From a virus (Duplodnaviria > Heunggongvirae > Uroviricota > Caudoviricetes), in the IMG/VR virus record IMGVR_UViG_3300037461_000469, positions 29,752-93,751 of that record: DNA of 64,000 bases. One strand, 5' to 3'. This document shows positions 2,839 through 42,715 of this stretch, in pieces. The notes under the pieces were generated by a model. The model did no database searches, was not told the DNA's origin, and was given only the letters and a program-made list of their open reading frames with translations. The stretch's first letter is position 1, and every line of letters starts with the position of its first letter. The position numbers and the translations under genes are program-made.

Positions 2839-3860
2839 TCTTTCTCCTTCAAAAGAAATTCGTTGTTCAGCACCTTGAAACTGATACGGCTACGCATTTT
2901 CTCGGAAAAGTCTCCGTAGGTCGCACGAACCACGATGCCTTCCCTGTCGTTCTGCGTTCCGTTGTATTTACCCTTCGCCATTTCCAAGAGTTGCTCTTGG
3001 TCGTAGTGGAATCCTTCACCCATTTGCACTAACGGGACACGCTCTAGGCCGAACATTGTAACGACCTGAAACATCCTAGGAACGGACAGATACTTTCCAT
3101 CGTCAATGTCGTACACATCGAAAACGAAAAGCGAGTGTTCGGTCAATCCCAACTTGTTCTTTTGGATTCCTGGGCCGCAAATTTCGCCCTGAATGGCGAT
3201 GTTCGCACCCCACTCCCGCATCTTCTTTTCTAAGTCGTACTTACGAGCCATCTGCCAATAGACAGAGCCTTCGCTGTCCTTCTTTTCCATATTGCGTGAG
3301 CAGACCCCGAACTCGCCACGGTTAAAGTAAATCGTGCAACTCGTCCCATCACACTTTGTCGAGATGTAGTAGGACTTGCCACGCAATTCATTAAGAACTT
3401 TGGGGACGTTCTGAATCCGCTCTTCGTCCGTTTTCGGAAACAGCGGCGGGAAATTTCCCTTGGTATCACCTTGGTTAAAGCCGCCAGGAACGGGTTTCTC
3501 GTAGTGAGTAATCCCTAGAGTGCCTGAAACGTCCTGACCGACCTCGTATTCAAGATGGGTCAGCGGCGGCAGAATTGTCAGCGGGAAAACAATCCCCTGT
3601 GAAAGCGTTCCACGAAGTTTAATCGTTTTGATGCGGAACTTTTCCTTCGCAAGAAAGGCAAACTCAGGCTTGTCGGGAACGATGGTGTCGATTTGAATAT
3701 AGACCACCGCATCACCAACTTTAAACTCACCCTTCTTGACTACCACTTGCCACCCAAGCACGTAGGCCTTTTCGATGGCATCAGCGTTTTCAATCGGCTG
3801 AATGTCGATAATTTTTTGAATTGATGCTAACATTTTTAAATCTCCTTGACCTGAATCCAA
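2835..3860 (-). CDS. ATP-dependent RNA ligase-like nucleotidyltransferase with N-terminal OB-like domain
   Basis: KxDG adenylation motif (ISTKCDGTSCTIY) in the middle of the protein; N-terminal region looks like an OB/tRNA-binding fold, as in DraRnl-type ligases. Confidence 0.55.
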   Translation of the reverse strand: MDSGQGDLKMLASIQKIIDIQPIENADAIEKAYVLGWQVVVKKGEFKVGDAVVYIQIDTIVPDKPEFAFLAKEKFRIKTIKLRGTLSQGIVFPLTILPPLTHLEYEVGQDVSGTLGITHYEKPVPGGFNQGDTKGNFPPLFPKTDEERIQNVPKVLNELRGKSYYISTKCDGTSCTIYFNRGEFGVCSRNMEKKDSEGSVYWQMARKYDLEKKMREWGANIAIQGEICGPGIQKNKLGLTEHSLFVFDVYDIDDGKYLSVPRMFQVVTMFGLERVPLVQMGEGFHYDQEQLLEMAKGKYNGTQNDREGIVVRATYGDFSEKMRSRISFKVLNNEFLLKEKE

Positions 3861-29363: not shown

Positions 29364-29392
29364 AATTATATCACAAAAAACTACATTTGTAA
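29364..29392 (-). promoter_or_regulatory. sigma70-type promoter, TTTACA-N17-TGtgaTATAAT
   Basis: Embedded in the 3' end of the radical SAM gene. Confidence 0.55.
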
Positions 29393-32502: not shown

Positions 32503-32578
32503 TGGCGGGCCAGGAGGGAGTTGAACCCCCAGTCTCAGATTTGGAGTCTGATGGTTTATCCAATTAACCGACTGACCC
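32503..32578 (-). tRNA. tRNA-Trp(CCA)
   Basis: Hand-folded cloverleaf: acceptor GGGTCAG/CTGGCCC, anticodon loop CTCCAAA, T-loop TTCAACT, CCA encoded. Confidence 0.75.
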
Positions 32579-32579
32579 G

Positions 32580-32666
32580 TGGTGCTAAGGGTGGGATTCG
32601 AACCCACAATCCGTTGCCGGCTACGGCTTTTGAGACCGCATTGAATACCAGTTCCAGCACCTTAGC
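32580..32666 (-). tRNA. tRNA-Leu(CAA), type II
   Basis: Acceptor GCTAAGG/CCTTAGC, AC loop CTCAAAA, long variable arm, T-loop TTCGAAT, CCA encoded. Confidence 0.75.
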
Positions 32667-32667
32667 A

Positions 32668-33450
32668 TTATTTCATTTCAGCAGTAGCCTGTATCACACA
32701 ATTATTAAGAAACTCTCTATCTTGGGTAAAAGTAGGAGCGTGTGCAGTTGCCCATTTGCTACGGCTTACATCATTGATAAGGGTGTGAACTTTGATAATC
32801 ATTCTACCCCTCTTGTACTTGGGGGCGTAGTCGTTCCAATTCTGCCCCTTCTGAAAAATCATTTCCTGAAGTTCTGTCGTGTTCTTGCCGTTCATTTCCT
32901 TGTGCGAGTAGAGAGATTGTGCAACCGAAAGGATACTGTTGCGAACACAGTCCTGTTGTCTCCAAATGAAGTAGTTTTGTACCTCGTCCCACTCAGGGAT
33001 TTGAAATACCCTGCTGTCGAACTCACCCCACTTCATGTTACGAGTGCAGGACTCAATTGTGTGTGGGCCTTCCTCGTAAGCAAACCTTTTCAGCCTAGCC
33101 TCATTGAATGCCCTCGTTGCCATACTTGCCGACACGCTTGCCATCTTCTGAATGTTGTTGTCGAACCAAGCATCCGTTGTGAGTTTGTCGAAGTCCATGA
33201 GAAGAATAGAAATCTCATCGGACTGCACGTAGGCGAACTTGGCTCCCTGAATGTTCTTGCAGAGGTCGGCCGCAGTTGCGTCCATGTCCTCAATAAATCC
33301 ATCATCGAACGGACGAGTCAGCCCACGCGTGTACGTGTGGAAAGCCTTCCCGTCAATTCGGATAATGGTGTGCGTTCTACGGGGCAGACAAATTCGTGTT
33401 CTGTCCTCGTAGTTCGATTTCATCCTATTTCCGATGTCATCTTTCTTCAT
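32668..33450 (-). CDS. Thg1-like protein (tRNA-His guanylyltransferase family 3'-5' polymerase)
   Basis: IIRIDGKAFH...AYVQSDEISILL and WRQQDC motifs match the Thg1/TLP family; the gene sits between two tRNA-Leu genes. Confidence 0.7.
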   Translation of the reverse strand: MKKDDIGNRMKSNYEDRTRICLPRRTHTIIRIDGKAFHTYTRGLTRPFDDGFIEDMDATAADLCKNIQGAKFAYVQSDEISILLMDFDKLTTDAWFDNNIQKMASVSASMATRAFNEARLKRFAYEEGPHTIESCTRNMKWGEFDSRVFQIPEWDEVQNYFIWRQQDCVRNSILSVAQSLYSHKEMNGKNTTELQEMIFQKGQNWNDYAPKYKRGRMIIKVHTLINDVSRSKWATAHAPTFTQDREFLNNCVIQATAEMK

Positions 33451-33495
33451 TTTATCCTCACTAAAATTAAATACTTGGTGCTAGCGAAGGGATTC

Positions 33496-33582
33496 GAACC
33501 CCCAATCCTTTTCAGGCCGTGCGTTCTAAGCGCACGATGAATACCAGTTCCAACACGCTAGCAAATGGGGTGAATGGAGAGA
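33496..33582 (-). tRNA. tRNA-Leu(TAG), type II
   Basis: Acceptor GCTAGCG, AC stem GTGCG/CGCAC with loop CTTAGAA, CCA encoded. Confidence 0.75.
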
Positions 33583-33585
33583 TTC

Positions 33586-33663
33586 GAACTCTCGACTAGT
33601 GCGTTCACAGCGCACCGCCTTTGGCCTCTAGGCGACATCCACCATAAAAGTTAAAAATTGGGT
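33586..33663 (-). tRNA. tRNA-His(GTG) with genomically encoded G-1
   Basis: AC loop CTGTGAA; extra 5' G pairing with C73; CCA encoded. Confidence 0.75.
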
Positions 33664-33677
33664 GAGCGGGACTTGCA

Positions 33678-33749
33678 CCCGCAACTCGTAGTTTCCGATA
33701 CTACGCGTCTTCTATTGACTTACCACCCACTACAATTCAATGGTTGGGA
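33678..33749 (-). tRNA. tRNA-Pro(CGG), non-canonical subfamily (U1:A72, D-loop AATAGAA, T-loop TGCAAGT)
   Basis: AC stem GTAGT/ACTAC with loop ATCGGAA; T-stem GCGGG/CCCGC. Confidence 0.5.
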
Positions 33750-33760
33750 ATGGGAGATTC

Positions 33761-33836
33761 GAACTCCCAAATTCTTGCGTCCAAGGCAAGCGACTTAACC
33801 GTTAGTCTAATTCCCAATACAGCCGTTGATGGTACT
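33761..33836 (-). tRNA. tRNA-Pro(TGG) (U1:A72)
   Basis: AC CTTGC-CTTGGAC-GCAAG; T-loop TTCGAAT; CCA encoded. Confidence 0.7.
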
Positions 33837-33839
33837 GCC

Positions 33840-33910
33840 CCACCGCCTCACGGTTCAGAGCCGTGTGTAATGCTATTTTACTAAACGGCTAAAAGCACCC
33901 CTGAGAGGAA
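33840..33910 (-). tRNA. tRNA-Gln(CTG), compact non-canonical subfamily (T-loop GGCAGTA)
   Basis: AGCCGTT|TA|GTAA-AATAGCA-TTAC|A|CACGG-CTCTGAA-CCGTG|AGGC|GGTGG-GGCAGTA-CCATC|AACGGCT. Confidence 0.5.
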
Positions 33911-33915
33911 TTGAA

Positions 33916-33987
33916 CCTCTACTGTAGGTTTAGGAAACCTGTGCGCTATCCGTTACACCACAGGGGCTTAAAAACGACAGGTCATAC
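33916..33987 (-). tRNA. tRNA-Arg(CCT) (G1:U72, no CCA)
   Basis: AC CAGGT-TTCCTAA-ACCTA, T-loop TTCAATT. Confidence 0.65.
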
Positions 33988-33992
33988 GACAA

Positions 33993-34108
33993 GGTGAGAA
34001 CACTTCGGGTGCGACCCGACCATCGTAAAGTCTTTAAACTAACCACGTGAACTCGCATCTCACCATTAGGGGAAATTGCGTGTCTAGTTCCACGCCGCTG
34101 TCGTTAAA
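33993..34108 (-). ncRNA. structured RNA element S1 (tRNA-like 5' domain plus expanded body; unknown function)
   Basis: Termini AACGACAG / CTGTCGTT are complementary; the internal conserved block CCACGCCGCTG is shared with S2 and S3. Confidence 0.45.
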
Positions 34109-34116
34109 TAGTGCAG

Positions 34117-34186
34117 GGCTGCTCCGATTCGAACAGAGATAAATGGGTTCAAAGCCCATCACCCTAACCATTGGGTTACAGCCCTA
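34117..34186 (-). tRNA. tRNA-Gln(TTG) (A1:U72)
   Basis: D-stem ACCC/GGGT, AC ATGGG-CTTTGAA-CCCAT, T-loop TTCGAAT; short variable loop. Confidence 0.6.
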
Positions 34187-34190
34187 TACG

Positions 34191-34262
34191 CATCCCCGAA
34201 GGGAATTGAACCCCTACTAAGGGTTTAGAAGACCCTTGCGCTATCCGTTACACCACGGGGAC
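34191..34262 (-). tRNA. tRNA-Arg(TCT)
   Basis: AC AGGGT-CTTCTAA-ACCCT; paralog of the Arg(CCT) gene. Confidence 0.7.
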
Positions 34263-34300
34263 ATAAAATTGCTTGTAGAAGAAGGGAGCCTTTCGGCCCC

Positions 34301-34645
34301 CTATTCAACACCTAGAACGTTTTTCAGCCTTGCCTTGTTGATGAATAAACTGTAGTCGTGCCAATTTGCGAAAATGGTTGCTTCCTCTAACATCACCGCT
34401 TCCACCTCTCCGTCTGATAACCCTCTGTCTTCCCATTCATCGCAACCACTACAACTCCCGTAGGAGTAGTTGTAACTGAACACCCGGCCGTCCCCCAACA
34501 ATACGTCTACGTCTACGTGGCCTTGGTAGTCATCCTCGTAGTCTGCCCTCAACAATTTCATGGCTCCCAGTTTGTCCAACACACTTTGCAAGTTGTCTGC
34601 GTAACGTCCCATGTGGCTTACTTCTACTTTGTTTTGTTCTGACAT
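34301..34645 (-). CDS. hypothetical acidic protein
   Basis: ORF within the tRNA island. Confidence 0.45.
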   Translation of the reverse strand: MSEQNKVEVSHMGRYADNLQSVLDKLGAMKLLRADYEDDYQGHVDVDVLLGDGRVFSYNYSYGSCSGCDEWEDRGLSDGEVEAVMLEEATIFANWHDYSLFINKARLKNVLGVE

Positions 34646-34705
34646 TTTGCACCTCCAAATGCCTTAGTGATGCTTCTTCGTATCAGAACATTAAAATTGC
34701 TAAAT

Positions 34706-34793
34706 TGGCGATGGGTGAAGGAGTTGAACCTCCGCTACTGTTACGTAGGCTTCGGTTTAGCAAACCGACACATTACCGCTCTGTCAACCCACC
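34706..34793 (-). tRNA. tRNA-Ser(GCT), type II
   Basis: AC TCGGT-TTGCTAA-ACCGA; long variable arm; CCA encoded. Confidence 0.7.
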
Positions 34794-35120
34794 CTATTTT
34801 TTCTTAGTCCACACGAACCCTAAAAGCAAACGATGTATTTTCCTATGAAACCAATTGGGAATTTTTCCATTCGGGGGTTCAACAGTTATACAACCACCAA
34901 ATAAAGAACAATGCCAATCCCCTGGCGAAGTGGTTACTGTATAAATGGGCATATAAGGGGAGTTCAAGATTTTTTCATCAGAGGACTTGGTAAAATGACA
35001 CCCCTTACAACAATCAAAAACTTCTTGGTTAGAAAAATGAATATCATATTCGGGACAACTTGAATGTAAAATATTTTTCAATTTTGTTTTTTTAGTAAGA
35101 GGACACTTTTTACTAATCAT
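34794..35120 (-). CDS. MIPKxCPL paralog family member 5
   Basis: MISKKCPLTKKTKLKNILHSSC N-terminus; its stop abuts the 5' end of tRNA-Ser. Confidence 0.5.
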   Translation of the reverse strand: MISKKCPLTKKTKLKNILHSSCPEYDIHFSNQEVFDCCKGCHFTKSSDEKILNSPYMPIYTVTTSPGDWHCSLFGGCITVEPPNGKIPNWFHRKIHRLLLGFVWTKKK

Positions 35121-35158
35121 TTATTATCCTGTTTATATTATATCATATTTTGTTTTTT

Positions 35159-35241
35159 CGGAAAGAGCAAGATTCGAACTTGCGGGTCTTTCGACCTTCC
35201 GCTTTCCAAGCGGATGCAATAGACCGCTCTGCCATCTCTCC
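35159..35241 (-). tRNA. tRNA-Ser(GGA), type II
   Basis: AC TCCGC-TTGGAAA-GCGGA; T-arm GCAAG-TTCGAAT-CTTGC. Confidence 0.7.
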
Positions 35242-35244
35242 ATT

Positions 35245-35339
35245 TGGCGGGAAGAAAGGGATTCGAACCCCTGAAGGATGGTATTAGCACCCTTGTCTGC
35301 TTTCAAGGCAGATGCATTAAACCGCTCTGCCATCTTCCC
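35245..35339 (-). tRNA. tRNA-Ser(TGA), type II with very long variable arm
   Basis: AC TCTGC-CTTGAAA-GCAGA; CCA encoded. Confidence 0.65.
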
Positions 35340-35349
35340 GTAATAAAAA

Positions 35350-35420
35350 TGCCCAATGATGGTTACGCTCCACCGCCTCGTCTTTGTAGGAGACATATTC
35401 TACTATTAAACTAATCGGGC
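35350..35420 (-). tRNA. tRNA-Val(TAC), compact non-canonical subfamily (C33; T-loop AGCGTAA)
   Basis: GCCCGAT|TA|GTTT-AATAGTA-GAAT|A|TGTCT-CCTACAA-AGACG|AGGC|GGTGG-AGCGTAA-CCATC|ATTGGGC. Confidence 0.45.
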
Positions 35421-35427
35421 ATACAAG

Positions 35428-35499
35428 TACCCCCCAAGGGAATCGAACCCCTGTCTCCTCGTTCGTAGCAAGGTGTTCTATCCGTTGAACTAGGAGGGC
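35428..35499 (-). tRNA. tRNA-Arg(ACG)
   Basis: AC CCTTG-CTACGAA-CGAGG; G1:U72; T-loop TTCGATT. Confidence 0.7.
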
Positions 35500-36147
35500 T
35501 TATTTTTCGTAAAACATAGGACTAGGATAATGATGCAACATGAACTGATTCTGCACAGTCGAATGTGTCGGATAGTTGTAGCATATATGGGGGTTGATAC
35601 AATACACGTTCATTCCCTTTTGTAAGTCCCTGAGTAATGCATCGAACGGGGCAGGGAACCTGTCATACATAACGATAATTCTGTCGTAAATTCTCTTGTT
35701 GATGATTACGCCGTGTACGCCGAAAGCGGATATTACTTTGTACACGTTCTTACAGATTCGTACAGGCCTGTAGCCGTCTTGGTCTGTATGCGCACCCGCA
35801 AGATACAACATATCCCAATCCTTCGGAACTGCTTCTAGAAAGCCTTCCAAATGCTCGTTGAAATCATCCACGAGAATCAAATCATCTTCAAACAAGGCAA
35901 CTGCTCTAGAGTGATAATACTTGCGTATAATTCGCTTGTATGATTCCAAACACCCGAAGGCATTTAGGCCGTGGCGGGTGATGTCTTCGGCGGGATACAT
36001 ATGTTCTACGTCTTTCCCCGCAATTGCGGGAAAAAGTTCAGCCGTGATTCCCAACTTGTTAAATTGGATGTTCATATGATTTGTCTTGAACTCGTTTAGG
36101 CTGAGTAGAACAACGTTATCAACGATTGTGTGTAAAATGCTTTTCAT
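35500..36147 (-). CDS. glycosyltransferase family 25-like protein
   Basis: N-terminus VLLSLNEFKTNHMNIQFNKLGITAELFPAIAGKD resembles the GT25 start. Confidence 0.45.
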   Translation of the reverse strand: MKSILHTIVDNVVLLSLNEFKTNHMNIQFNKLGITAELFPAIAGKDVEHMYPAEDITRHGLNAFGCLESYKRIIRKYYHSRAVALFEDDLILVDDFNEHLEGFLEAVPKDWDMLYLAGAHTDQDGYRPVRICKNVYKVISAFGVHGVIINKRIYDRIIVMYDRFPAPFDALLRDLQKGMNVYCINPHICYNYPTHSTVQNQFMLHHYPSPMFYEK

Positions 36148-36176
36148 TCTTGCTCCCCTATTATTTAGGGGAAAAG

Positions 36177-36247
36177 TGGGTCTAGAGGGAATCGAACCCC
36201 CATCTTCAGGTTAAAGGCCTGCTCGTCTACCGTTGACATATAAACCC
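36177..36247 (-). tRNA. tRNA-Lys(TTT)-like with C32-C33 anticodon loop (CCTTTAA)
   Basis: Canonical D and T arms; AC stem CAGG/CCTG with a 27:43 mismatch. Confidence 0.5.
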
Positions 36248-36254
36248 ATAAAAG

Positions 36255-36325
36255 TGAAGCCGGAGGGAATCGAACCCACATAGATTGATTAAGAGTCAAC
36301 TATTCTTCCGTTGAATTACGGCTCC
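36255..36325 (-). tRNA. tRNA-Lys(CTT)
   Basis: AC GTTGA-CTCTTAA-TCAAT. Confidence 0.65.
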
Positions 36326-36329
36326 ATAA

Positions 36330-36480
36330 AACCGACAGGTTGAAATTTATATTTCAACTTTCCTACTTTTCCATCGTATCTTTACCTTCTAGATTAGGTG
36401 TAGGAATCGTCTATCTGTCTAGTATTCCTCTAGAAAACACGCAAACGATAGTGTGTACTCTATCCACACCGCTGTCGGTT
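36330..36480 (-). ncRNA. structured RNA element S2 (paralog of S1)
   Basis: Termini ACCGACAG / CTGTCGGT are complementary; conserved internal block; internal 8-bp hairpin GTTGAAAT/ATTTCAAC. Confidence 0.45.
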
Positions 36481-36494
36481 AAAATTGCAAAAAA

Positions 36495-36568
36495 TGGTGA
36501 GGCCGAGAAGAATCGAACTTCTATAGATTGATTAAAAGTCAACTATTCTGCCGTTGAATTACGACCCC
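36495..36568 (-). tRNA. tRNA-Lys(TTT)
   Basis: AC GTTGA-CTTTTAA-TCAAT; CCA encoded. Confidence 0.7.
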
Positions 36569-36575
36569 ACAAAAC

Positions 36576-36657
36576 TGCCTAGGGTGGGATTTGAACCCAC
36601 ATGAGCCGAAGCCCAACGGATTTTAAGTCCGCACGGTATACATTCCACCACCTAGGC
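36576..36657 (-). tRNA. tRNA-Leu(TAA), type II
   Basis: Acceptor GCCTAGG/CCTAGGC; AC GCGGA-CTTAAAA-TCCGT. Confidence 0.7.
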
Positions 36658-36670
36658 GTAATAATTCAAA

Positions 36671-36746
36671 TGGTGGCAAGGGGAGGAATCGAACCTCCAT
36701 TTCCCGCTCTTCAGGCGGGTGCTATGACCACGTAAGCGACCTTGCC
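36671..36746 (-). tRNA. tRNA-Phe(GAA)
   Basis: AC CCCGC-CTGAAGA-GCGGG; CCA encoded. Confidence 0.75.
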
Positions 36747-36748
36747 TT

Positions 36749-36834
36749 TGGTGTTGCTGAAAGGCATCGAACCTTCACCCCTTACGGGACAGGACTCTCA
36801 TTCCTGCGTGTCTACCAAGTTACACCACAGCAAC
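36749..36834 (-). tRNA. tRNA-Leu(GAG), type II
   Basis: AC CAGGA-ATGAGAG-TCCTG; CCA encoded. Confidence 0.65.
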
Positions 36835-36842
36835 ATAAAAAA

Positions 36843-36921
36843 TGGCGGGGGCGAAGAGATTCGAACTCCTAACTCACAGGGGTTAACGGCCCCCGGTTCT
36901 ACCGATTAGAACTACACCCCC
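36843..36921 (-). tRNA. tRNA-Asn(GTT) with C33 (loop CCGTTAA)
   Basis: AC GGGGG-CCGTTAA-CCCCT; CCA encoded; 7-nt variable region. Confidence 0.6.
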
Positions 36922-37176
36922 ACTCTAACATCATGCATATTGATGATGATTATTCTTCGTAAAAGTCCGAAGTCAAAATAAATTTCAAATCTGCGATTGT
37001 TTTTAGCAAAGGTCAAATGGGAGCCTAATTCAATACAGCCGTCAAAAGCCTTTGCCCAAGTAAAGTAAATTTTTTTGTGTCTAAAAAGTCTAAACTCTTT
37101 CTCCACTAAAAAAGGACTTCTGTTGTACTCACAATCATGTTCATCTTCTTTTTTCATTTTTACCTCTTGTTAATTT

Positions 37177-37250
37177 TGGAGCGGGTAGAGGTAGTCGAAA
37201 CCTCATCCTTTGGTTGGAAGCCAAATATTCTACCGTTGAACTACACCCGC
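37177..37250 (-). tRNA. tRNA-Gly(TCC) (U73)
   Basis: AC TTTGG-CTTCCAA-CCAAA; T-loop TTCGACT; CCA encoded. Confidence 0.75.
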
Positions 37251-37310
37251 AAGCGGACGAAAATATTAGAAATTTGAAATTCGAATTTCACAAAAACACT
37301 AAATATATGT

Positions 37311-37931
37311 ATGGGATTAATAAAAGGACATTGTAGCCATTGTGGAAAAAATTTTTCAAAAAAAGGGTCTATTGAAAACTATAACCGATGGAAAACTCAT
37401 TTTTGTTCGAAAGACTGTCAAGATAAATATAAAATGACAAAAATAAAAGTGATTTGTAAAAACTGCAATAAAGAATTTGAAAAACAACTGAAACGAATAG
37501 TAACTAATAATTTCTGTTCTTCTTCTTGTGCCGCTATTTATAATAACACTCACAAAACAAAAGGAACCCGAACATCAAAGTTAGAGGTTTGGCTTCAGGA
37601 ACAACTACGAACTCTGTATCCAAAAGAAGAAATTCTTTTCAACGATAAGACCGCTATTAACTCAGAGTTGGATATTTACTTCCCTCGTCTAAAATTAGCC
37701 TTTGAATTGAACGGTATTTTTCATTACGAACCAATTTACGGGAAAGAAAAACTTGAACAAATTCAAAACAACGACCAAAGAAAATTTCTTCTTTGTCAAC
37801 AAAAAGGAATCTCGCTTTGCGTGATTGATGCTTCGAAAGAAAATTATTTCAAAGAAGAACGAAGCAAAAAATATTTAGATATTGTTATTGATATTTTTCA
37901 AAAGGCGGCGAAGGGAGTCGCACCCATTTAG
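37311..37931 (+). CDS. putative homing endonuclease, Zn-ribbon + Vsr-like (DUF559/PD-(D/E)xK) nuclease domain, paralog 1
   Basis: N-terminal CxxC pairs; C-terminal LDIYFPRLKLAFELNGIFHY matches the Vsr core D-I-x-F-P..KLA...G.F.H; AT-rich; the 3' end overlaps tRNA-Cys. Confidence 0.5.
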   Translation: MGLIKGHCSHCGKNFSKKGSIENYNRWKTHFCSKDCQDKYKMTKIKVICKNCNKEFEKQLKRIVTNNFCSSSCAAIYNNTHKTKGTRTSKLEVWLQEQLRTLYPKEEILFNDKTAINSELDIYFPRLKLAFELNGIFHYEPIYGKEKLEQIQNNDQRKFLLCQQKGISLCVIDASKENYFKEERSKKYLDIVIDIFQKAAKGVAPI

Positions 37932-37973
37932 ACGGTTTTGCAGACCGCTGCCTAACTGTTCGGCCACGCCGTC
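37903..37973 (-). tRNA. tRNA-Cys(GCA)-like, non-canonical T-loop TGCGACT
   Basis: AC GCGGT-CTGCAAA-ACCGT; acceptor has one A:C mismatch; overlaps the 3' end of Vsr-like paralog 1. Confidence 0.4.
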
Positions 37974-37978
37974 CTACA

Positions 37979-38061
37979 CGGAGAGAGCAAGATTCGAACT
38001 TGCGCCCCTTTCGGGGAACGGCTTTCGAAACCGCCACGATAGACCACTCTGACATCTCTCC
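37979..38061 (-). tRNA. tRNA-Ser(CGA), type II
   Basis: AC GCGGT-TTCGAAA-GCCGT; paralog of the Ser(GGA) gene. Confidence 0.7.
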
Positions 38062-38065
38062 ACAA

Positions 38066-38136
38066 AGCGGATTATCGGCTCTGCCCCGATACTCCAACGT
38101 TGGCAACGTTGGGTGCTACTATTACACCAAACCCGC
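38066..38136 (-). tRNA. tRNA-Gly(GCC), compact non-canonical subfamily (U73; T-loop GGCAGAG)
   Basis: GCGGGTT|TG|GTGT-AATAGTA-GCAC|C|CAACG-TTGCCAA-CGTTG|GAGT|ATCGG-GGCAGAG-CCGAT|AATCCGC. Confidence 0.5.
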
Positions 38137-38145
38137 AGAAATTCG

Positions 38146-38217
38146 CACCCCTACTAGGATTCGAACCCAGTCTCAATCGTTCGAAGCGATTGTTGCTTTC
38201 CATTACATCATAGGGGC
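38146..38217 (-). tRNA. tRNA-Arg(TCG)
   Basis: AC AATCG-CTTCGAA-CGATT; G1:U72. Confidence 0.65.
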
Positions 38218-38222
38218 ATAAT

Positions 38223-38376
38223 ACCGCTAGGCGGGGCTTGATTCCCGCTGACCGTTATCTAGCCATTGTAGTTTAACCGTATCACTTGCCACCCTGGTCT
38301 TTCGGGCTACGGGTTCTGTCCAATTGAGGACATAGGCGTTCGCTACAATGCGGTGTCCTTCCACGCCGCTAGCGGT
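38223..38376 (-). ncRNA. structured RNA element S3 (paralog of S1/S2)
   Basis: Termini ACCGCTAG / CTAGCGGT pair; the two changed positions on one strand are matched by the complementary changes on the other (covariation relative to S1/S2); T-arm-like hairpin GCGGG...CCCGC next to the 3' strand. Confidence 0.45.
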
Positions 38377-38455
38377 TATCAGAAAGGACAACGCAAAGCG
38401 ATGTCCCAACTCTTTCTACACTTGATTACCACGGTAGATGAGATAGATGAAATTA

Positions 38456-38529
38456 TGGAGCCGCTGAATGGAATTGCACCAATATTTCTTGTTTACCGAA
38501 CAAGCGGTCTGCTATTGAACTACAGCGGC
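38456..38529 (-). tRNA. tRNA-Thr(GGT), non-canonical subfamily (D-loop AATAGCA, T-loop TGCAATT, C33)
   Basis: AC CTTGT-TCGGTAA-ACAAG; CCA encoded. Confidence 0.5.
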
Positions 38530-38701
38530 ATTTACGTAATGAAGCGTTGGATGCTACGATATGAAAACGGTTCAAAGCCACCTGACGAGAACGATTCGCC
38601 AAAACCCGCTTACGAAACGGGTATTTTGCCAATTAAATTAAGGTGGCATAAAAAAGAGCCATAAAAGAGATTCGAAAATGAGATTTTCACTAAATAGTAG
38701 T

Positions 38702-39364
38702 ATGAGTATAGAAAAAGATATTTTGTATTGTAATTATTGTCATAAAAAACTTGAAAGGGTTTGGGTGCGATATGGAAAAAGAGCAACCCAAAATCACTAT
38801 TGCTCTGCTGACTGTTTACATCAATTTAGAAATAAAGCACAATTAGTTTCTTGTAAAAATTGCGGAAAAGAATTTATGAAAAGATTAGACCAAATTAAAA
38901 AATTCCCTAATAATTTTTGTTCCCAATCTTGCGCCGCCATTTATAATAATGCTCACAAAACAAAAGGAACCCGAACTTCAAAACTTGAAGTTTGGTTACA
39001 GGGGCGATTACGAACCCTTTACCCTAACGAAGAAATTCTTTTCAACGATAAAACTGCTATCAACTCCGAATTAGATATTTACTTTCCTCGTTTGAAGTTG
39101 GCTTTTGAGTTGAATGGTATCTTCCATTACGAACCTATATACGGAAAAGAAAAACTTACACAAATTCAAAACAACGACCAAAGAAAGTTTTTACTTTGCC
39201 ATCAAAAAGGAATTTCGCTTTGTGTAATTGACACATCGAAACAGAAATACTTTAAAAAAGAACAAAGTGAAAAATATTTAAAAATCATAACAGATATAAT
39301 TCAGCCGCCGGAGGAAATTGCATCCCCAACATCCGCATTACAGGTGCGGCACTCTGCTAATTGA
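38702..39364 (+). CDS. Vsr-like homing endonuclease paralog 2
   Basis: About 75% identical to paralog 1 over the nuclease domain; start set at the MSIEKDILYC shared with paralog 3; C-terminal read-through into the tRNA-Thr gene. Confidence 0.5.
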   Translation: MSIEKDILYCNYCHKKLERVWVRYGKRATQNHYCSADCLHQFRNKAQLVSCKNCGKEFMKRLDQIKKFPNNFCSQSCAAIYNNAHKTKGTRTSKLEVWLQGRLRTLYPNEEILFNDKTAINSELDIYFPRLKLAFELNGIFHYEPIYGKEKLTQIQNNDQRKFLLCHQKGISLCVIDTSKQKYFKKEQSEKYLKIITDIIQPPEEIASPTSALQVRHSAN

Positions 39365-39375
39365 GTTACGGCGGC
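39303..39375 (-). tRNA. tRNA-Thr(TGT), non-canonical subfamily (T-loop TGCAATT, C33)
   Basis: Acceptor GCCGCCG/CGGCGGC; AC CCGCA-CCTGTAA-TGCGG; overlaps the 3' end of Vsr-like paralog 2. Confidence 0.5.
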
Positions 39376-39403
39376 ATCAAATATATTTAATTTAAAACCG
39401 AAA

Positions 39404-39476
39404 AATTTCTACGGGGAGTCGAACCCCGATTTTCTGGTTGCAGGCCAGATGTACGCCCGTTATACTATAGCCCCAT
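39404..39476 (-). tRNA. tRNA-Ala(TGC)-like with mismatched 5' acceptor strand (possible 5'-editing substrate or pseudogene)
   Basis: Canonical D, AC (TCTGG-CCTGCAA-CCAGA) and T arms, but 5' GGGGCTA against 3' TAGAAAT leaves G:A mismatches at positions 2-4. Confidence 0.35.
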
Positions 39477-39577
39477 AATAAAGGGTATGGTATTAAAGAA
39501 ATATTGCAAAATAACAGAGAGGGGAAATAATTCAAAACCTTATCTTGTCTAGAATGATAAGATTCTTTTTCTTTCAC

Positions 39578-39653
39578 GTGTGCCGTTGGGATTTGAACCC
39601 AAGCCTCCCGCCTTCTGCGGCGGGTGTGCTATCCAGCCTACACCATTAGCACA
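39578..39653 (-). tRNA. tRNA of undetermined specificity (palindromic anticodon arm CCCGCC-GCAGAA-GGCGGG)
   Basis: Canonical D-loop AGGCTGGATA and T-loop TTCAAAT; anticodon loop is 6 or 8 nt long, not 7. Confidence 0.4.
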
Positions 39654-39681
39654 ACTCCTCTCCGAACTTATAAGTTCAATG

Positions 39682-39753
39682 TTGTCGTGGGTGGGGTCGA
39701 ACCACCATTGAGCGATTATAAGTCGCCTCGCCTGCCAATTGGCGGACACGACA
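39682..39753 (-). tRNA. tRNA-Ile(TAT) (U1:A72)
   Basis: AC GGCGA-CTTATAA-TCGCT; T-loop TTCGACC. Confidence 0.65.
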
Positions 39754-39759
39754 ATATTC

Positions 39760-39799
39760 AAAATAAAATTAAATACTGCGGGGCGGGTGGTCCCGCCCC
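39760..39799 (-). terminator. intrinsic terminator (minus-strand direction)
   Basis: 8-bp GC stem GGGGCGGG/CCCGCCCC followed, in the minus sense, by a U-rich tract. Confidence 0.5.
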
Positions 39800-40387
39800 A
39801 AAAAGTTATAATGGATGACCGCCGACAGAGACTTGACGCATGAAGGCGGTACTTAGGCAGATGTAGGCTCGTATGATTGGCCCACTTCGCCTTAACCTAA
39901 GTCAATCTTGGTGCGGGGCTATTGGTAACACCGTGGTCAAACAGCATTACCAACAGCCTGACCTTCCGCACACTTTCCAAACACTCTAATTTGAACCTAC
40001 AGAAATCCACGAATGTCGCACCACCAACGAATTTCTGACGATTCTCTTTTACCATAATTACTGACCGCTAATGGAATTGTTCCGAATCTCTGTGCGATTG
40101 AGAATGGTTCCGCTAACTGTATTAAAAGCACCACCCCTGTCCCATCATAATCCAAAATCTAAATGATTTCGCAGGGTGGCTGACTTAAAATCGAATCTTA
40201 CTCAGGGGCTAACAGGTTCCACGACAACCCGTTGCCTCTGAGTTCCGTCTAATCTTTTTAATTTTAATTATGTCCGCTGACCTAAATCTCAGGCCTTGGT
40301 CGTGGAAAGGTCAAAGATTTATTTCTGCCAACGGATTCAAAGGTGGTGTCCTTATAAGGGACAACCTTCCAACCTAAGAACAAAATG

Positions 40388-40472
40388 TGCCGCGGGGTAG
40401 AATTGCACTACCAACGCCTTGCGGCGAACGGTTTTACAGACCGCTAGGCTCACTACGCTGCCCAACCACGGC
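40388..40472 (-). tRNA. tRNA-Tyr(GTA), type II, T-loop TGCAATT
   Basis: AC GCGGT-CTGTAAA-ACCGT; variable arm hairpin CGCC-GCAA-GGCG. Confidence 0.55.
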
Positions 40473-40478
40473 ATAAAG

Positions 40479-40549
40479 TCCCCAATGACGGTACTGCCCC
40501 GCCGTCTGACGATTATCGGTCGCCGGTTCTGCTATTGAACTAAATGGGG
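40479..40549 (-). tRNA. tRNA-Ile(GAT), compact non-canonical subfamily (C33; T-loop GGCAGTA)
   Basis: CCCCATT|TA|GTTC-AATAGCA-GAAC|C|GGCGA-CCGATAA-TCGTC|AGAC|GGCGG-GGCAGTA-CCGTC|ATTGGGG. Confidence 0.45.
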
Positions 40550-40612
40550 ATGTATTGCTGACGGGGATTGAAAATTTTATTCCGATTTCTTTCAAAAACA
40601 CTAAATAATAGT

Positions 40613-41224
40613 ATGAGTATTAGCAAAGAAATTTTGTATTGTGATTATTGCCACAAAAACTTCAATGGATGGGTTCGTAATAAAAATAGGGAAAAAGAAA
40701 AACACTACTGTTCCCGATATTGTTATCGTCAAGCCAAAATCACAAAACAAACCGTTTCCTGTAAAAATTGCGGAAAAGAATTTGAAAAAACATTAGGTGA
40801 AATTAAAAAATATTCAAATCATTTTTGTTCTCACTCTTGTCGTGCCATTTATCAAAACACCCACAAAACAAAAGGAACCCGAATATCGAAGTTGGAAATT
40901 TGGCTTCGGGAACAATTACGAACTCTTTACCCTGACGAAGAAATTCTTTTCAACGATAAAACCACCATCAACTCTGAATTGGATATTTATTTTCCAAACC
41001 GCAAATTGGCCTTCGAACTAAATGGAATTTTCCATTACGAACCAATTTACGGAAAAGAAAAACTTACACAAATTCAAAACAATGACCAACGTAAGTTTTT
41101 ACTTTGCCAACAAAAAAATATTTCTCTTTGTGTGATTGATGCTTCAAAAGAAAATTACTTTAAAGAAGAACGAAGTAAAAAATATTTGAATATTATTATC
41201 AATATTATTAATAATCAAAAGTAG
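40613..41224 (+). CDS. Vsr-like homing endonuclease paralog 3
   Basis: Same domain layout; its stop overlaps the 3' end of tRNA-Glu. Confidence 0.5.
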   Translation: MSISKEILYCDYCHKNFNGWVRNKNREKEKHYCSRYCYRQAKITKQTVSCKNCGKEFEKTLGEIKKYSNHFCSHSCRAIYQNTHKTKGTRISKLEIWLREQLRTLYPDEEILFNDKTTINSELDIYFPNRKLAFELNGIFHYEPIYGKEKLTQIQNNDQRKFLLCQQKNISLCVIDASKENYFKEERSKKYLNIIINIINNQK

Positions 41225-41293
41225 CCCTGCGGGTAATCGAAACCCGACCTAAAGATTGAGGGTCTTTCATCCTGACCGTTAGACGACAGGGCC
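41222..41293 (-). tRNA. tRNA-Glu(CTC) with C33 (loop CCCTCAA)
   Basis: AC AAAGA-CCCTCAA-TCTTT; T-loop TTCGATT. Confidence 0.6.
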
Positions 41294-41319
41294 AATTACT
41301 CTACAGTAACAAAAAATCT

Positions 41320-41390
41320 CCACCCTGTGATACTCAGGGATTGGCGGCAGATACGCCGCTGTCCTATTATGTTAGACGATGGAGAAAATA
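41320..41390 (-). pseudogene. degenerate tRNA-like element
   Basis: Has an acceptor-like stem and T-like hairpin CCCTG-AGTATCA-CAGGG, but the anticodon hairpin has a 6-nt loop. Confidence 0.25.
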
Positions 41391-41394
41391 TTTC

Positions 41395-41469
41395 TTGGTA
41401 GCCCCACGGAGAATTGAACTCCGACTCCGAGATTGAAAATCTCGTGTCCTGACCATTAGACGATGGAGC
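41395..41469 (-). tRNA. tRNA-Glu(TTC)
   Basis: AC CGAGA-TTTTCAA-TCTCG; T-loop TTCAATT; CCA encoded. Confidence 0.75.
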
Positions 41470-41481
41470 CATAAAATTGCT

Positions 41482-41557
41482 TTGGTCGCAGAGGAAAGAT
41501 TCGAACTTTCGGCTACAAGTTTATGAAACTCGTTCCTTAGCCACTAGGATACTCTGC
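41482..41557 (-). tRNA. tRNA-Met(CAT), elongator (or Ile2)
   Basis: Acceptor CGCAGAG/CTCTGCG fully paired; AC CGAGT-TTCATAA-ACTTG. Confidence 0.7.
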
Positions 41558-41562
41558 GAAAA

Positions 41563-41638
41563 ATGGTAGCGGGTCAGGGAATCGAACCCTGCTCAGGGGT
41601 GGTTATGAGCCACCTGAAACACCTTGCCTCCCACCCGC
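41563..41638 (-). tRNA. tRNA-Met(CAT), initiator-like (1:72 mismatch, A11:U24)
   Basis: U1:U72 mismatch; D-stem GAGG/TTTC gives A11:U24; AC GGTGG-CTCATAA-CCACC. Confidence 0.55.
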
Positions 41639-42281
41639 AATAAAAATACAAATGGAATAACCTTTGGTTACTTGATTTACATAAATCTAAACTTTCCACT
41701 TATCACTAAAAATGGTGATGAGTGGAAATAATAAAATATTTCACGCCGCAAGCAAGGCCACATCCAAGTACTCGTTGCCGAAATACAAAAATGGGGGCAA
41801 CCCCTGCTCCACGGCACTATTGCTAACCTCTTGTGGTTTTTTGAGTATAGGAACTAGGATACGACTTCCGAGTACCACTCCCCACGGCTCACCACTAACC
41901 TCAATAAAAATCTTTCTGACCGCCGAATTTCACGGGATACTTTGGGTCATACTAGATTTAAAATTGCTACTTCTTTTTTTACATCTTGGTGAAAAAGAAT
42001 ACGAAGAAAAAACACCATCTTATAAAAGTGCTAGAAGTCAGCCACCACTACGGAAGAGCGTTTTATACACGTCTGCGAACTGCCTTTAAACTTCAGCCGC
42101 CATTCGTCAATGGCGAACTCGTAGATACAGGGACGATATGCCCTGCGGTGGCTGACTTCAAAATTGCAAGAGTCGAACTAGCCCTCTACGGCGTGAACGC
42201 TGAACCCGCACGTCTGCAAGGCTACTCGTAGAGTGGAATGACGGCTCTCTGCCGTTGGCTAATCCGACTCATAAAAAAGCA

Positions 42282-42357
42282 TGGCGGGACCGACGGGTAC
42301 TGCCCCCGCATATTCCACGCTGACAACGTGGCGCGCCTACTTGTGTGCCACGGCCCC
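42282..42357 (-). tRNA. tRNA-Asp(GTC), non-canonical T-loop GGCAGTA (G73, CCA encoded)
   Basis: AC CCACG-TTGTCAG-CGTGG; acceptor GGGGCCG/CGGTCCC. Confidence 0.5.
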
Positions 42358-42519
42358 ATTAATTAAAAGGATATAATATTGCTTACAAAAACAAAAAGAA
42401 AGAAGCGGGGTTCCCCTCGCCGATTCGAAAATCGTCAAGAGGAACGCCCACTTCAAAAAGCCACAAAACCAAAAATGTCAAACACCCTAAGACTCATAGC
42501 CTACGAGTCAATACAACCC

Positions 42520-42548
42520 ATTATAACACAGGTTGTTGTATCTGTCAA
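42520..42548 (-). promoter_or_regulatory. sigma70-type promoter, TTGACA-N17-TGtgtTATAAT, directed into the non-coding region and tRNA-Asp
   Basis: Perfect consensus hexamers with 17-nt spacer. Confidence 0.65.
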
Positions 42549-42593
42549 GCCCTTTTGGAATTTTTTTTCAAAATCCAAAACAGTCTTACATTC

Positions 42594-42669
42594 TGGTCGG
42601 GGTGAGAGGGTTCGAACCTCCAACTTCTTGCTCCCAAAGCAAGCACGCTGCCAATTGCGCCACACCCCG
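42594..42669 (-). tRNA. tRNA-Pro(TGG) (G37, C1:G72)
   Basis: AC CTTGC-TTTGGGA-GCAAG; T-loop TTCGAAC; CCA encoded; driven by promoter 42687..42715. Confidence 0.7.
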
Positions 42670-42686: not shown

Positions 42687-42715
42687 ATTATATCACACCA
42701 CGTAACGTTTGTCAA
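42687..42715 (-). promoter_or_regulatory. sigma70-type promoter, TTGACA-N17-TGtgaTATAAT, driving tRNA-Pro and the tRNA island
   Basis: Consensus hexamers about 18 nt upstream of the 5' end of tRNA-Pro. Confidence 0.7.

Follow-up and report, generated by a model that had tools for sequence, protein, structure and literature searches.

A tRNA island of an uncultured, distantly T4-like phage and a class of tRNAs with an A18/G55 elbow

The tRNA island

This work concerns a dense island of tRNA genes in a 64-kb stretch of viral DNA, positions 29,752 to 93,751 of the IMG/VR record IMGVR_UViG_3300037461_000469; the whole stretch is called the window below. Judged by its large terminase (26571-28493), which is 24-26% identical to T4-like terminases, the window belongs to a distantly T4-like phage. 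The island is genuine, occupies exactly positions 32503-42669 and has every tRNA locus on the minus strand. Both its span and the common orientation of the tRNAs had been given in a preliminary description of this DNA and were confirmed by all four methods used here (ARAGORN, Rfam, a geometry scan and a covariance model).

ARAGORN's calls in the window with default settings amount to 35 tRNAs, every one of them in the island and on the minus strand. The Rfam model RF00005 gives 38 calls, including four loci beyond those of ARAGORN, and misses a few of the ARAGORN calls. Since the T-loops of several loci looked odd by eye, we wrote a sequence-agnostic cloverleaf scanner which scores geometry and base pairing only. 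In the island it produced 33 hits that have no more than one mismatch among 21 pairs, and in the remaining ~107 kb (both strands) none as good. A custom covariance model, built from the class of tRNAs with an atypical elbow described below and run with filters off, recovered 40 loci, all of them in the island, and no new ones in the spacers. The spacers were also searched with a relaxed T-arm motif for additional Ser and Leu tRNAs, and none came up. The union of the four methods comprises 42 loci within 10.2 kb: 39 satisfy the standard cloverleaf criteria (acceptor stem of 7 bp, D stem of 3-4 bp, anticodon and T stems of 5 bp, anticodon and T loops of 7 nucleotides (nt)) and three are atypical. 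The preliminary description had the same three atypical loci but counted about 41 other tRNAs instead of 39; only the three atypical loci of the 42 fall outside the cloverleaf criteria.

The protein-coding genes of the island include one for a Thg1-like protein, and this protein was used as a query to collect 62 viral and 80 metagenomic loci. Loci on other contigs carry L numbers here. Syntenic islands are present on two viral contigs, L002 (223 kb) and L003 (239 kb). L002 is the closest relative, collinear with the window island at about 88% identity. A megablast search of the island against 50,697 deposited phages found no match.

The 39 cloverleaf tRNA genes are listed below. Unless other methods are named, each was found by ARAGORN, Rfam and the geometry scan; G55 marks the atypical elbow, with the T-loop sequence in brackets.

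42594..42669 (-): tRNA-Pro(TGG), canonical elbow, CCA encoded
42282..42357 (-): tRNA-Asp(GTC), G55 (GGCAGTA), G73, CCA encoded; geometry scan and covariance model, missed by ARAGORN and Rfam; 100% identical in L002
41564..41639 (-): tRNA(CAT), initiator-like, U1xU72, A11:U24, 6-nt variable loop, CCA encoded; ARAGORN only
41483..41558 (-): tRNA(CAT), elongator Met or Ile2, CCA encoded
41396..41470 (-): tRNA-Glu(TTC), canonical, CCA encoded
41221..41293 (-): tRNA-Glu(CTC), canonical, no CCA
40479..40549 (-): tRNA-Ile(GAT), G55 (GGCAGTA), no CCA; geometry scan and covariance model, missed by ARAGORN and Rfam
40387..40472 (-): tRNA-Tyr(GTA), long variable arm, G55 (TGCAATT), no CCA; ARAGORN and geometry scan
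39681..39753 (-): tRNA-Ile(TAT), canonical, no CCA
39303..39375 (-): tRNA-Thr(TGT), G55 (TGCAATT), no CCA
38576..38647 (-): tRNA-Thr(CGT), U55, A54/U58 swap (ATCGTTC), no CCA
38456..38529 (-): tRNA-Thr(GGT), G55 (TGCAATT), CCA encoded
38145..38217 (-): tRNA-Arg(TCG), canonical, no CCA; L002 orthologue has TCA
38066..38136 (-): tRNA-Gly(GCC), G55 (GGCAGAG), U73, no CCA; Rfam, geometry scan and covariance model, missed by ARAGORN
37978..38062 (-): tRNA-Ser(CGA), no CCA; ARAGORN and Rfam
37902..37974 (-): tRNA-Cys(GCA), G55 (TGCGACT), U73, no CCA; ARAGORN and Rfam
37177..37250 (-): tRNA-Gly(TCC), canonical, CCA encoded; L002 allele is G55
36843..36921 (-): tRNA-Asn(GTT), CCA encoded; ARAGORN and Rfam
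36749..36834 (-): tRNA-Leu(GAG), CCA encoded
36671..36746 (-): tRNA-Phe(GAA), CCA encoded
36576..36657 (-): tRNA-Leu(TAA), no CCA; ARAGORN and Rfam
36495..36568 (-): tRNA-Lys(TTT), CCA encoded
36254..36325 (-): tRNA-Lys(CTT), no CCA
36176..36247 (-): tRNA-Lys(TTT), copy 2, no CCA
35427..35499 (-): tRNA-Arg(ACG), no CCA
35350..35420 (-): tRNA-Val(TAC), G55 (AGCGTAA), no CCA; Rfam, geometry scan and covariance model, missed by default ARAGORN
35245..35339 (-): tRNA-Ser(TGA), CCA encoded
35158..35242 (-): tRNA-Ser(GGA), no CCA
34706..34793 (-): tRNA-Ser(GCT), CCA encoded
34190..34262 (-): tRNA-Arg(TCT), no CCA
34113..34185 (-): tRNA-Gln(TTG), no CCA
33895..33967 (-): tRNA-Arg(CCT), no CCA
33820..33890 (-): tRNA-Gln(CTG), G55 (GGCAGTA), G73, no CCA; Rfam, geometry scan and covariance model, missed by ARAGORN
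33741..33816 (-): tRNA-Pro(TGG), copy 2, CCA encoded
33658..33729 (-): tRNA-Pro(CGG), G55 (TGCAAGT), no CCA
33566..33642 (-): tRNA-His(GTG), encoded G-1, C73, CCA encoded; ARAGORN and Rfam
33476..33562 (-): tRNA-Leu(TAG), CCA encoded
32580..32666 (-): tRNA-Leu(CAA), CCA encoded
32503..32578 (-): tRNA-Trp(CCA), CCA encoded

Ser, Arg and Leu are represented by four genes each, Pro, Lys and Thr by three, Gln, Gly, Glu, Ile and the CAT anticodon by two, while Trp, His, Phe, Asn, Cys, Tyr, Val and Asp have a single gene. The tallies of five Ser, five Leu and two Thr genes given earlier were each off by one. The island has 37 anticodons, counting the TGC of an Ala-like locus. Competent-looking tRNAs exist for 19 amino acids and Ala is present only as this acceptor-defective locus, whose acceptor strands do not pair and which does not fold as a cloverleaf; coverage of all 20 amino acids, as first described, holds only if it is counted. 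The identification of one CAT tRNA (41564-41639) as initiator-like is reasonable, given its U1xU72 mismatch, A11:U24 pair and a minimum-energy fold that is a cloverleaf.

CCA is encoded in 18 of the 39 tRNA genes and missing from 21, in line with the initial estimate of about one half, and the Arg, Lys(CTT) and Gln genes had been cited correctly as examples without CCA. The packing is looser than the 0-10 nt spacers with few interruptions that had been reported: gaps between adjacent tRNAs are at most 13 nt in only 22 of 41 cases, non-coding spacers of 143-642 nt each, several of them strongly structured, add up to ~2.5 kb, and there are three small open reading frames (ORFs) of 114, 108 and 81 amino acids (aa) and not one.

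tRNAs with A18 and G55 in the elbow

The elbow contact between G18 and U55 is near-universal in tRNAs. It is expected in 29 of the 39 island tRNAs, which carry GG in the D-loop and U55-C56 in the T-loop. The other ten carry A18 and G55, with G19 and C56 kept: Asp, Ile-GAT, Tyr, Thr-TGT, Thr-GGT, Gly-GCC, Cys, Val, Gln-CTG and Pro-CGG. The D-loop of such tRNAs reads AATAGYA as opposed to the canonical AAYGGYA, and their T-loops in the island include TGCAATT, GGCAGTA, GGCAGAG and AGCGTAA; U54 is also absent in five of the ten. We refer to these tRNAs as the G55 class.

The two changes go together. Among 242 distinct tRNAs from the window and the loci linked to Thg1-like genes, G55 is accompanied by the AG D-loop in 39 of 39 cases and U55 by GG in 184 of 188 (Fisher p = 1e-41). 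In a MAFFT alignment of 34 G55 tRNAs the invariant columns are U8, A14, A18, G19, G55 and C56. All 21 cloverleaf pairs co-vary in this class, with 95.7% of positions paired versus 53% after shuffling and ~40% after sliding, the first value being partly circular because the set was selected for pairing. Positions 54 and 58 are U:A, A:U or G:G in almost all cases, suggesting from the sequences that the internal pair of the T-loop is retained in an altered form. Other determinants are ordinary: the discriminators are standard (Asp G73, Cys U73, Gly U73, Gln G73), the anticodon loops have 7 nt, and 37 anticodons are represented among the 180 distinct G55 sequences known from all loci.

tRNA-Thr(CGT) at 38576-38647 has G18G19 and U55 together with A:U at 54:58, and its orthologues in L002, L003 and L069 are full G55 tRNAs (AGCATAA). 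By its sequence it may be an intermediate form between the canonical and the G55 tRNAs.

The class is not confined to the window and its relatives. A scan of IMG/VR for the typical D-arm found 82 stretches on unrelated contigs, with G55 at 38 of the 39 sites that form cloverleaves; the loci found in this way hold 140 distinct G55 tRNAs and 303 canonical ones. Some arrays are almost wholly of the G55 type, such as L157 (no canonical, 13 G55) and L214 (one canonical, 15 G55). When 596 Gb of genomes were scanned with this D-arm pattern, 72 stretches were obtained, 16 of which are G55 tRNAs, mostly in dense arrays on contigs of metagenome-assembled genomes (MAGs). In total, the 180 distinct G55 tRNAs are distributed over dozens of unrelated viral and MAG contigs (the window, L001-L003, L066, L068, L069, L135, L142, L144, L147-L226 and L241-L300).

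Dense arrays with 23, 16, 7 and 3 G55 tRNAs were seen in L263, L295, L242 and L246, assigned to Chthoniobacterales, Verrucomicrobiota, Saccharibacteria and Melioribacteraceae MAGs, respectively. The G55-rich MAG contigs probably come from phages and were binned with bacterial genomes. A few apparently bacterial tRNA-Gly(TCC/CCC) genes, mostly from Actinomycetota MAGs (L230, L261, L297, L299, L237, L292), combine the AATAGYA D-loop with U55; these A18 and U55 tRNAs are rare exceptions to the co-variation.

Standard annotation overlooks much of the class. Across all loci default ARAGORN finds 49% of the 180 G55 tRNAs and none of the 41 with G54, versus 99% of the canonical tRNAs. Phage genomics therefore works with biased tRNA counts.

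No hit was obtained when the G55 tRNA-Pro-CGG was compared by blastn with the set of deposited phages, and the G55 tRNA-Ile-GAT matched in it only T5-like tRNA-Ile genes, which share the anticodon arm and have a canonical elbow. The A18/G55 pair is not mentioned in reviews on the tRNA elbow, on T-loop modification or on non-canonical tRNAs, nor did text searches of the literature bring it up, and we found no description of the class in phages. The elbow class is the unexpected part; the island itself belongs to a known theme.

Three atypical tRNA-like loci

Three loci depart from the cloverleaf standard:

39405..39474 (-): Ala(TGC)-like locus, D, anticodon and T arms intact; Rfam aligns model positions 5-66 only
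39578..39653 (-): 'caga' locus, identity unassigned, 8-nt (or 6-nt) anticodon loop; ARAGORN, Rfam (29.2 bits)
41317..41385 (-): Glu-like locus, cloverleaf arms intact, 6-nt anticodon loop, T-loop AGTATCA; covariance model, fold

In the Ala-like locus the 3' acceptor strand TAGAAAT is unable to pair with the 5' strand GGGGCTA. At minimum energy the locus does not fold as a cloverleaf (z about 0), and the preferred partner of G1-G4 is an upstream CCC(C). The locus is nevertheless kept in L002, non-pairing 3' side included, and since its five differences there fall on loop positions or one compensatory pair, it looks selected and not decaying. More copies were sought in IMG/VR with two patterns, which returned only the L002 contig. 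Several ideas on how the acceptor might be completed were considered (5'-editing by the Thg1-like protein that rebuilds AUUU opposite AAAU, tandem G.A pairs, pairing of an upstream ATTTCT with AGAAAT); two near-identical sequences do not decide between them. Just upstream of its own copy of this locus L002 has a 139-nt insertion (4313-4451) flanked by the repeat GCAATA(A/T)TT. It holds a further tRNA-like sequence (T-arm GAGG-TTCAACT-CCTC) whose acceptor strands are likewise unpaired.

The Glu-like locus folds as a cloverleaf and has an anticodon loop of 6 nt in the window versus 8 nt in L002. The L002 orthologue of the 'caga' locus (4166-4241) has a 7-nt anticodon loop with the anticodon TCA. 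The same opal-suppressor type anticodon is found in L002 at the position orthologous to tRNA-Arg(TCG) (5339-5411), and these sequences hint at stop-codon reassignment or suppression in the L002 phage but not in the window phage. Recoding in the latter was considered and rejected, as its genes read normally under table 11 and no suppressor anticodon is present.

Homing endonucleases and possible allele exchange

Three protein genes on the strand opposite to the tRNAs interrupt the island:

37311..37931 (+): homing endonuclease paralogue 1, 206 aa; absent in L002
38678..39364 (+): homing endonuclease paralogue 2, 228 aa, C-terminal tail runs antisense into tRNA-Thr; absent in L002
40568..41224 (+): homing endonuclease paralogue 3, 218 aa, antisense to tRNAs; absent in L002

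The products are 67-73% identical to one another, have N-terminal zinc fingers and match PHROG homing/HNH endonuclease families (1e-14 to 3e-17). Their presence had been described correctly; the label 'Vsr-like' comes from a motif (SKLE..ELDIYFP..AFELNG..H) which resembles Vsr/DUF559 by eye and lacks Pfam support even at E<=10. At this threshold Pfam gives zinc fingers only, NCBIfam contains no nuclease family that matches, and a sequence search of PDB yielded no match. The AlphaFold model made from the three paralogues is poor, with a predicted local distance difference test score (pLDDT) of 55. The C-terminal tails of the endonucleases read into the adjoining tRNA gene on the opposite strand.

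All three genes are missing from the collinear L002 island, which makes them presence/absence polymorphisms at the same sites; they are recent insertions between tRNA genes. At the junctions (37170-37985, 38560-39385 and 40470-41300) the adjacent tRNA allele or alleles are also replaced, with switches between canonical and G55 forms: tRNA-Gly(TCC) is canonical in the window and G55 in L002, tRNA-Thr(TGT) is G55 in the window and canonical in L002. Co-conversion during homing would be expected to leave such differences in neighbouring alleles. The association of the endonuclease genes with swaps of canonical and G55 alleles suggests a way in which G55 variants spread.

Genes with a proposed role in tRNA maturation and repair

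The remaining protein genes of the island, the relevant genes outside it and the putative transcription signals are as follows:

32668..33450 (-): Thg1-like protein (TLP) of the bacterial type, 260 aa; PF04446 2.6e-28, best PDB match 4KGK 6e-61
34301..34645 (-): ORF of 114 aa, no family; DNA conserved in L002
34794..35120 (-): ORF of 108 aa, no family; no L002 counterpart
35500..36147 (-): GT25-like ORF, 215 aa; weak match, 8e-6, 26.3 bits versus a cutoff of 24
36912..37157 (-): ORF of 81 aa, no family; DNA conserved in L002
45472..45972 (-): P-loop kinase, bacterial Pnkp kinase module, 166 aa; Pnkp match 1.6e-11
45973..47358 (-): class II CCA-adding enzyme with HD domain, 461 aa; Pfam, NCBIfam, PDB
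51097..52323 (-): T4 Rnl1-type RNA ligase, 408 aa; PF09511 2.1e-22
2835..3860 (-): second RNA ligase; PF09414 and PHA02142 OB domain
42687..42715 (-): promoter-like site, TTGACA-17-TATAAT with TG, 12/12 sigma-70, just upstream of the first tRNA
42520..42548 (-): promoter-like site 2, 12/12 with TG
42386..42454 (-): terminator-like hairpin, long, GC-rich, followed by a T-run; kept in L002

Database searches confirmed the Thg1-like, GT25-like and three endonuclease genes that had been said to interrupt the island, as well as the cca gene at 45973-47358. The Thg1-like protein is much closer to the Bacillus thuringiensis TLP (4KGK, 6e-61) than to true Thg1 enzymes (1e-12 or weaker), and aligns with it at RIDG and SDEIS, which we take to be the catalytic (metal-binding carboxylate) motifs. 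As the tRNA-His gene encodes its own G-1, a role in repair would fit this protein better than G-1 addition.

The CCA-adding enzyme matches PF01743 (1.4e-40), PF12627 (1.4e-19) and HD (2.5e-7). It scores better against CCA-adding enzymes than against poly(A) polymerases in PDB (1e-53 versus 1e-31) and better against the CCA equivalogs than against PcnB in NCBIfam (1e-86 versus 8e-48, all below the curated cutoffs). The suggestion that genes without CCA go together with a phage CCA-adding enzyme is consistent with this class II assignment and with the 21 tRNAs that need CCA.

Codon coverage and the proposed role of the island

Every codon box but that of Ala is covered and gene numbers track box degeneracy (four each for Leu, Ser and Arg), not codon frequency. 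The codon usage of the phage is balanced, with a G+C content at third codon positions (GC3) of 0.52. The claim of a full set was overstated: Ala has no competent-looking tRNA, and only G55 tRNAs serve Asp, Val, Tyr and Cys. Since coverage follows codon boxes, all but Ala, the logic of a complete set is favoured over selective compensation.

In our view this large, uncultured and distantly T4-like phage probably has in the island a module for supplying and repairing tRNAs. Host RNA polymerase would transcribe it from the two consensus sigma-70 promoters as a few long precursors, from which host RNase P and 3' nucleases would free the tRNAs. The 21 tRNAs lacking CCA would be completed by a CCA-adding enzyme, of which the phage supplies its own copy. 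The bacterial-type Thg1-like 3'-5' polymerase may rebuild damaged tRNA 5' ends, while the Pnkp-like kinase, the HD domain of the CCA enzyme and the two RNA ligases may heal and reseal cut tRNAs. The predicted effect is that phage translation keeps going when host tRNAs are depleted or cleaved. The G55 tRNAs, in which A18 would face G55 and G19:C56 is kept, presumably take the normal L-shape and serve translation. The endonucleases may drive exchange of tRNA alleles between co-infecting relatives, and such exchange would explain the mosaic of canonical and G55 alleles. Evasion of tRNA-cleaving immunity, invoked as a function of the set, may be one of its roles; it gains indirect support from the kinase, the two ligases and the Thg1-like protein and fits recent work (PMC10264068, PMC11555353, PMC11464382, PMC13056530).

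Several observations weigh against this account. Ala makes up 5% of the phage codons and the phage has no competent-looking Ala tRNA. Asp, Val, Tyr and Cys are covered solely by G55-class tRNAs, whose use in translation we infer, and the characterised cellular tRNAs without G18-G19 and U55, the Staphylococcus aureus non-proteogenic tRNA-Gly, are excluded from translation (PMC13443448). Internal terminator-like hairpins imply several transcription units, and no promoters were found for the extra ones. The kinase stands alone, with no recognisable phosphatase partner or domain, the HD domain of the CCA enzyme being only a candidate. Finally, the case for endonuclease-driven allele exchange is built on two genomes only.

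The long-standing account of phage tRNAs is codon compensation (PMC10264068), in which a phage carries tRNAs for codons common in its own genes and rare in the host, for faster late protein synthesis. A Watson-Crick cognate phage anticodon does exist for 66% of the phage codons, but the set is unselective in the sense described above, gene numbers do not follow usage, tRNA-Pro(TGG) is duplicated even though CCA is the least-used Pro codon (15%), and codon usage is balanced. We find this account doubtful for the island as a whole, and it does not exclude supply and repair, with which it is compatible. Far less credible is the view that the island is decaying or selfish cargo, that is, pseudogenes and fragments shuffled by homing endonucleases to no benefit of the phage. 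The three structurally defective loci (Ala-like, 'caga' and Glu-like), the mosaic structure between relatives and the recent endonuclease insertions speak for it. Against this, 39 of the 42 loci either form full cloverleaves with no more than one mismatch or are ARAGORN or Rfam calls, stems co-vary, the Ala-like locus and its L002 orthologue differ only at loops and one compensatory pair, and consensus promoters as well as genes of enzymes dedicated to maturation and repair flank the island. The cargo view is largely refuted for the 39 cloverleaf loci, and overall we regard it as highly improbable.

A further possibility concerns the G55 tRNAs alone, which could act off the ribosome, either in another aminoacyl-transfer reaction, as the staphylococcal cell-wall tRNA-Gly does, or as decoys for host tRNA-binding enzymes or nucleases. 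The precedent of S. aureus, where tRNA-Gly without G18-G19 and U55 is kept out of translation (PMC13443448), agrees with this, as do the lower frequency of encoded CCA in G55 genes (9/39 versus 129/188 canonical genes) and the presence in the island of two tRNA-like loci with abnormal, variable anticodon loops, which means that non-decoding tRNA-like RNAs exist here. However, the staphylococcal exclusion has been ascribed to weak EF-Tu determinants and not to the elbow, and the G55 class keeps G19:C56, unlike those tRNAs. The breadth of its anticodons, its 7-nt anticodon loops and its standard discriminators also argue for decoding. Moreover, G55 tRNAs replace canonical tRNAs with the same anticodon at the same position in relatives, and arrays such as L157 and L214 consist of them almost wholly. 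We therefore hold an off-ribosome role to be unlikely.

A wider proposal can be made tentatively, as one that may well prove wrong: large uncultured phages would use for ordinary translation a second, hitherto undescribed tRNA architecture, with an A18-G55 elbow, 54:58 as U:A, A:U or G:G and often no T54, which is independent of, and possibly invisible to, the host factors that read the T-loop. If this is true, such factors would include TruB, TrmA/TrmFO, T-loop- or elbow-directed tRNases of defence and toxin systems and even a phage nuclease that clears host tRNAs. Phage tRNA complements would then be systematically under-counted, and pseudouridine 55 (Psi55) would be dispensable for a whole natural class of decoding tRNAs. 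Should the G55 tRNAs decode, they would provide a natural test of the roles of Psi55, T54 and G18, a possible route of phage escape from T-loop-directed host factors and an alternative scaffold for engineered tRNAs. The evasion mechanism based on the elbow is speculation.

Comparison with known systems

The island is one more example of large phages equipped with tRNAs and with enzymes for tRNA repair. The Xanthomonas jumbo phage XacN1 (AP018399) has 56 tRNAs for all 20 amino acids (PMC5852040). It resembles the window phage in being large, in having dozens of clustered tRNAs for all or nearly all amino acids, in a Thg1-like gene (52% identical) and an RNA ligase beside the island, and in small ORFs and an HNH endonuclease among the tRNAs. 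In contrast to the window, with G55 in 10 and no CCA in 21 of its 39 tRNAs, all 20 of the 20 XacN1 tRNAs recovered by our scan have a TTC/GG elbow and CCA. The XacN1 tRNAs also lie within terminal repeats, some of them are suppressors, at the nucleotide level XacN1 and the window show no similarity, and the window falls short of full coverage, with cloverleaf tRNAs for 19 amino acids.

T4 carries eight tRNAs in a cluster with the homing endonuclease SegB and the stable RNAs C and D, and its Pnkp/Rnl1 repair counters the anticodon nuclease PrrC. The window phage shares with it a T4-like terminase, a tRNA cluster with free-standing homing endonucleases and putative non-tRNA RNAs, a likeness read here from the genes, and an Rnl1-type ligase and a polynucleotide kinase encoded elsewhere in the genome. 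It differs in the size of the set (39 + 3 loci), in the additional Thg1-like protein and CCA enzyme, in endonucleases that are not GIY-YIG Seg proteins by any match obtained, and in a kinase that is a stand-alone module without a phosphatase domain.

Large co-oriented blocks of tRNA genes interspersed with small ORFs are also a feature of T5-like phages, and the functional logic, replacing or outlasting cleaved host tRNAs, would be the same. Phage tRNAs neutralise PARIS, retron and other tRNA-cleaving defences, and the evasion described so far involves changes in the anticodon loop or anticodon arm (PMC11464382, PMC11555353, PMC10264068). An elbow variant is not mentioned in these three papers, and in the T5-like phage that we examined all 19 annotated tRNAs have a T-loop of the canonical TTC type.

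The only characterised cellular tRNAs we found that have lost U55 and the contact with G18 are the non-proteogenic tRNA-Gly of S. aureus (PMC13443448). These also lack G19, have a shortened anticodon loop, serve a single amino acid and are excluded from translation, whereas the phage class keeps G19:C56 and 7-nt anticodon loops and has 37 anticodons.

Structured RNAs of the spacers and neighbouring genes

Several spacers are predicted to be structured (the z-scores of -4.5 and -4.3 are relative to mononucleotide shuffles):

41990..42285 (-): structured spacer, two long-range helices, z -4.5; partly kept in L002
39754..40386 (-): structured ~600-nt RNA (633 nt), unclassified, between tRNA-Tyr and tRNA-Ile(TAT), z = -8.5, end hairpin 39780-39799
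38218..38455 (-): spacer element C, closed by the stem ACCGCTAG/CTAGCGGT, on which a 3' hairpin stacks, and with a CGGCGTGGA hairpin
36326..36494 (-): spacer element B, closing stem AACCGACAG/CTGTCGGTT, CGGTGTGGA hairpin, z -4.3; kept in L002
33968..34112 (-): spacer element A, closing stem AACGACAG/CTGTCGTT, CGGCGTGGA hairpin

Rfam at E<=1 over the island gave only tRNA and chance matches. For the 39754-40386 RNA a homologue was found in L002 only, with 179 of 179 predicted pairs kept, five compensatory and 13 wobble-compatible changes. The large ornate RNAs ROOL and GOLLD are often located near phage tRNAs (10.1101/2024.12.08.627333), and the 633-nt element is likewise large, highly structured and placed within a phage tRNA array; it differs from them in matching no Rfam family, ROOL and GOLLD included, at E<=10. 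The motif AAGTCAGCCACC of the spacer 41990-42285 recurs in this RNA at about 40195. A 125-aa plus-strand ORF (41712-42089) without a family match overlaps the spacer neighbouring 41990-42285.

The segment 42386-42548 (-), between tRNA-Pro and tRNA-Asp, consists of a perfect sigma-70 promoter, ~130 nt and the terminator-like hairpin, and is conserved in L002. From this arrangement it looks like an independent small RNA gene.

Elements A, B and C (~145-240 nt) are closed by a common stem, AAC(C)GACAG/CTGTCG(G)TT or ACCGCTAG/CTAGCGGT, after which comes a GYGTG-GAnnnGA-CACRC hairpin (CGGYGTGGA). In element C a terminal 5-bp hairpin stacks on the closing stem much as the T-arm of a tRNA does on its acceptor stem, and L066 and L003 show compensatory changes.

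Genes near the island include those for a lysine-2,3-aminomutase-like radical SAM protein (48932-50044), a family to which the EF-P modification enzyme belongs, an ART-PolyVal ADP-ribosyltransferase (47348-47767) and a B12-binding radical SAM protein (29381-30556). A LAGLIDADG endonuclease gene (52326-53015) adjoins the Rnl1 gene.

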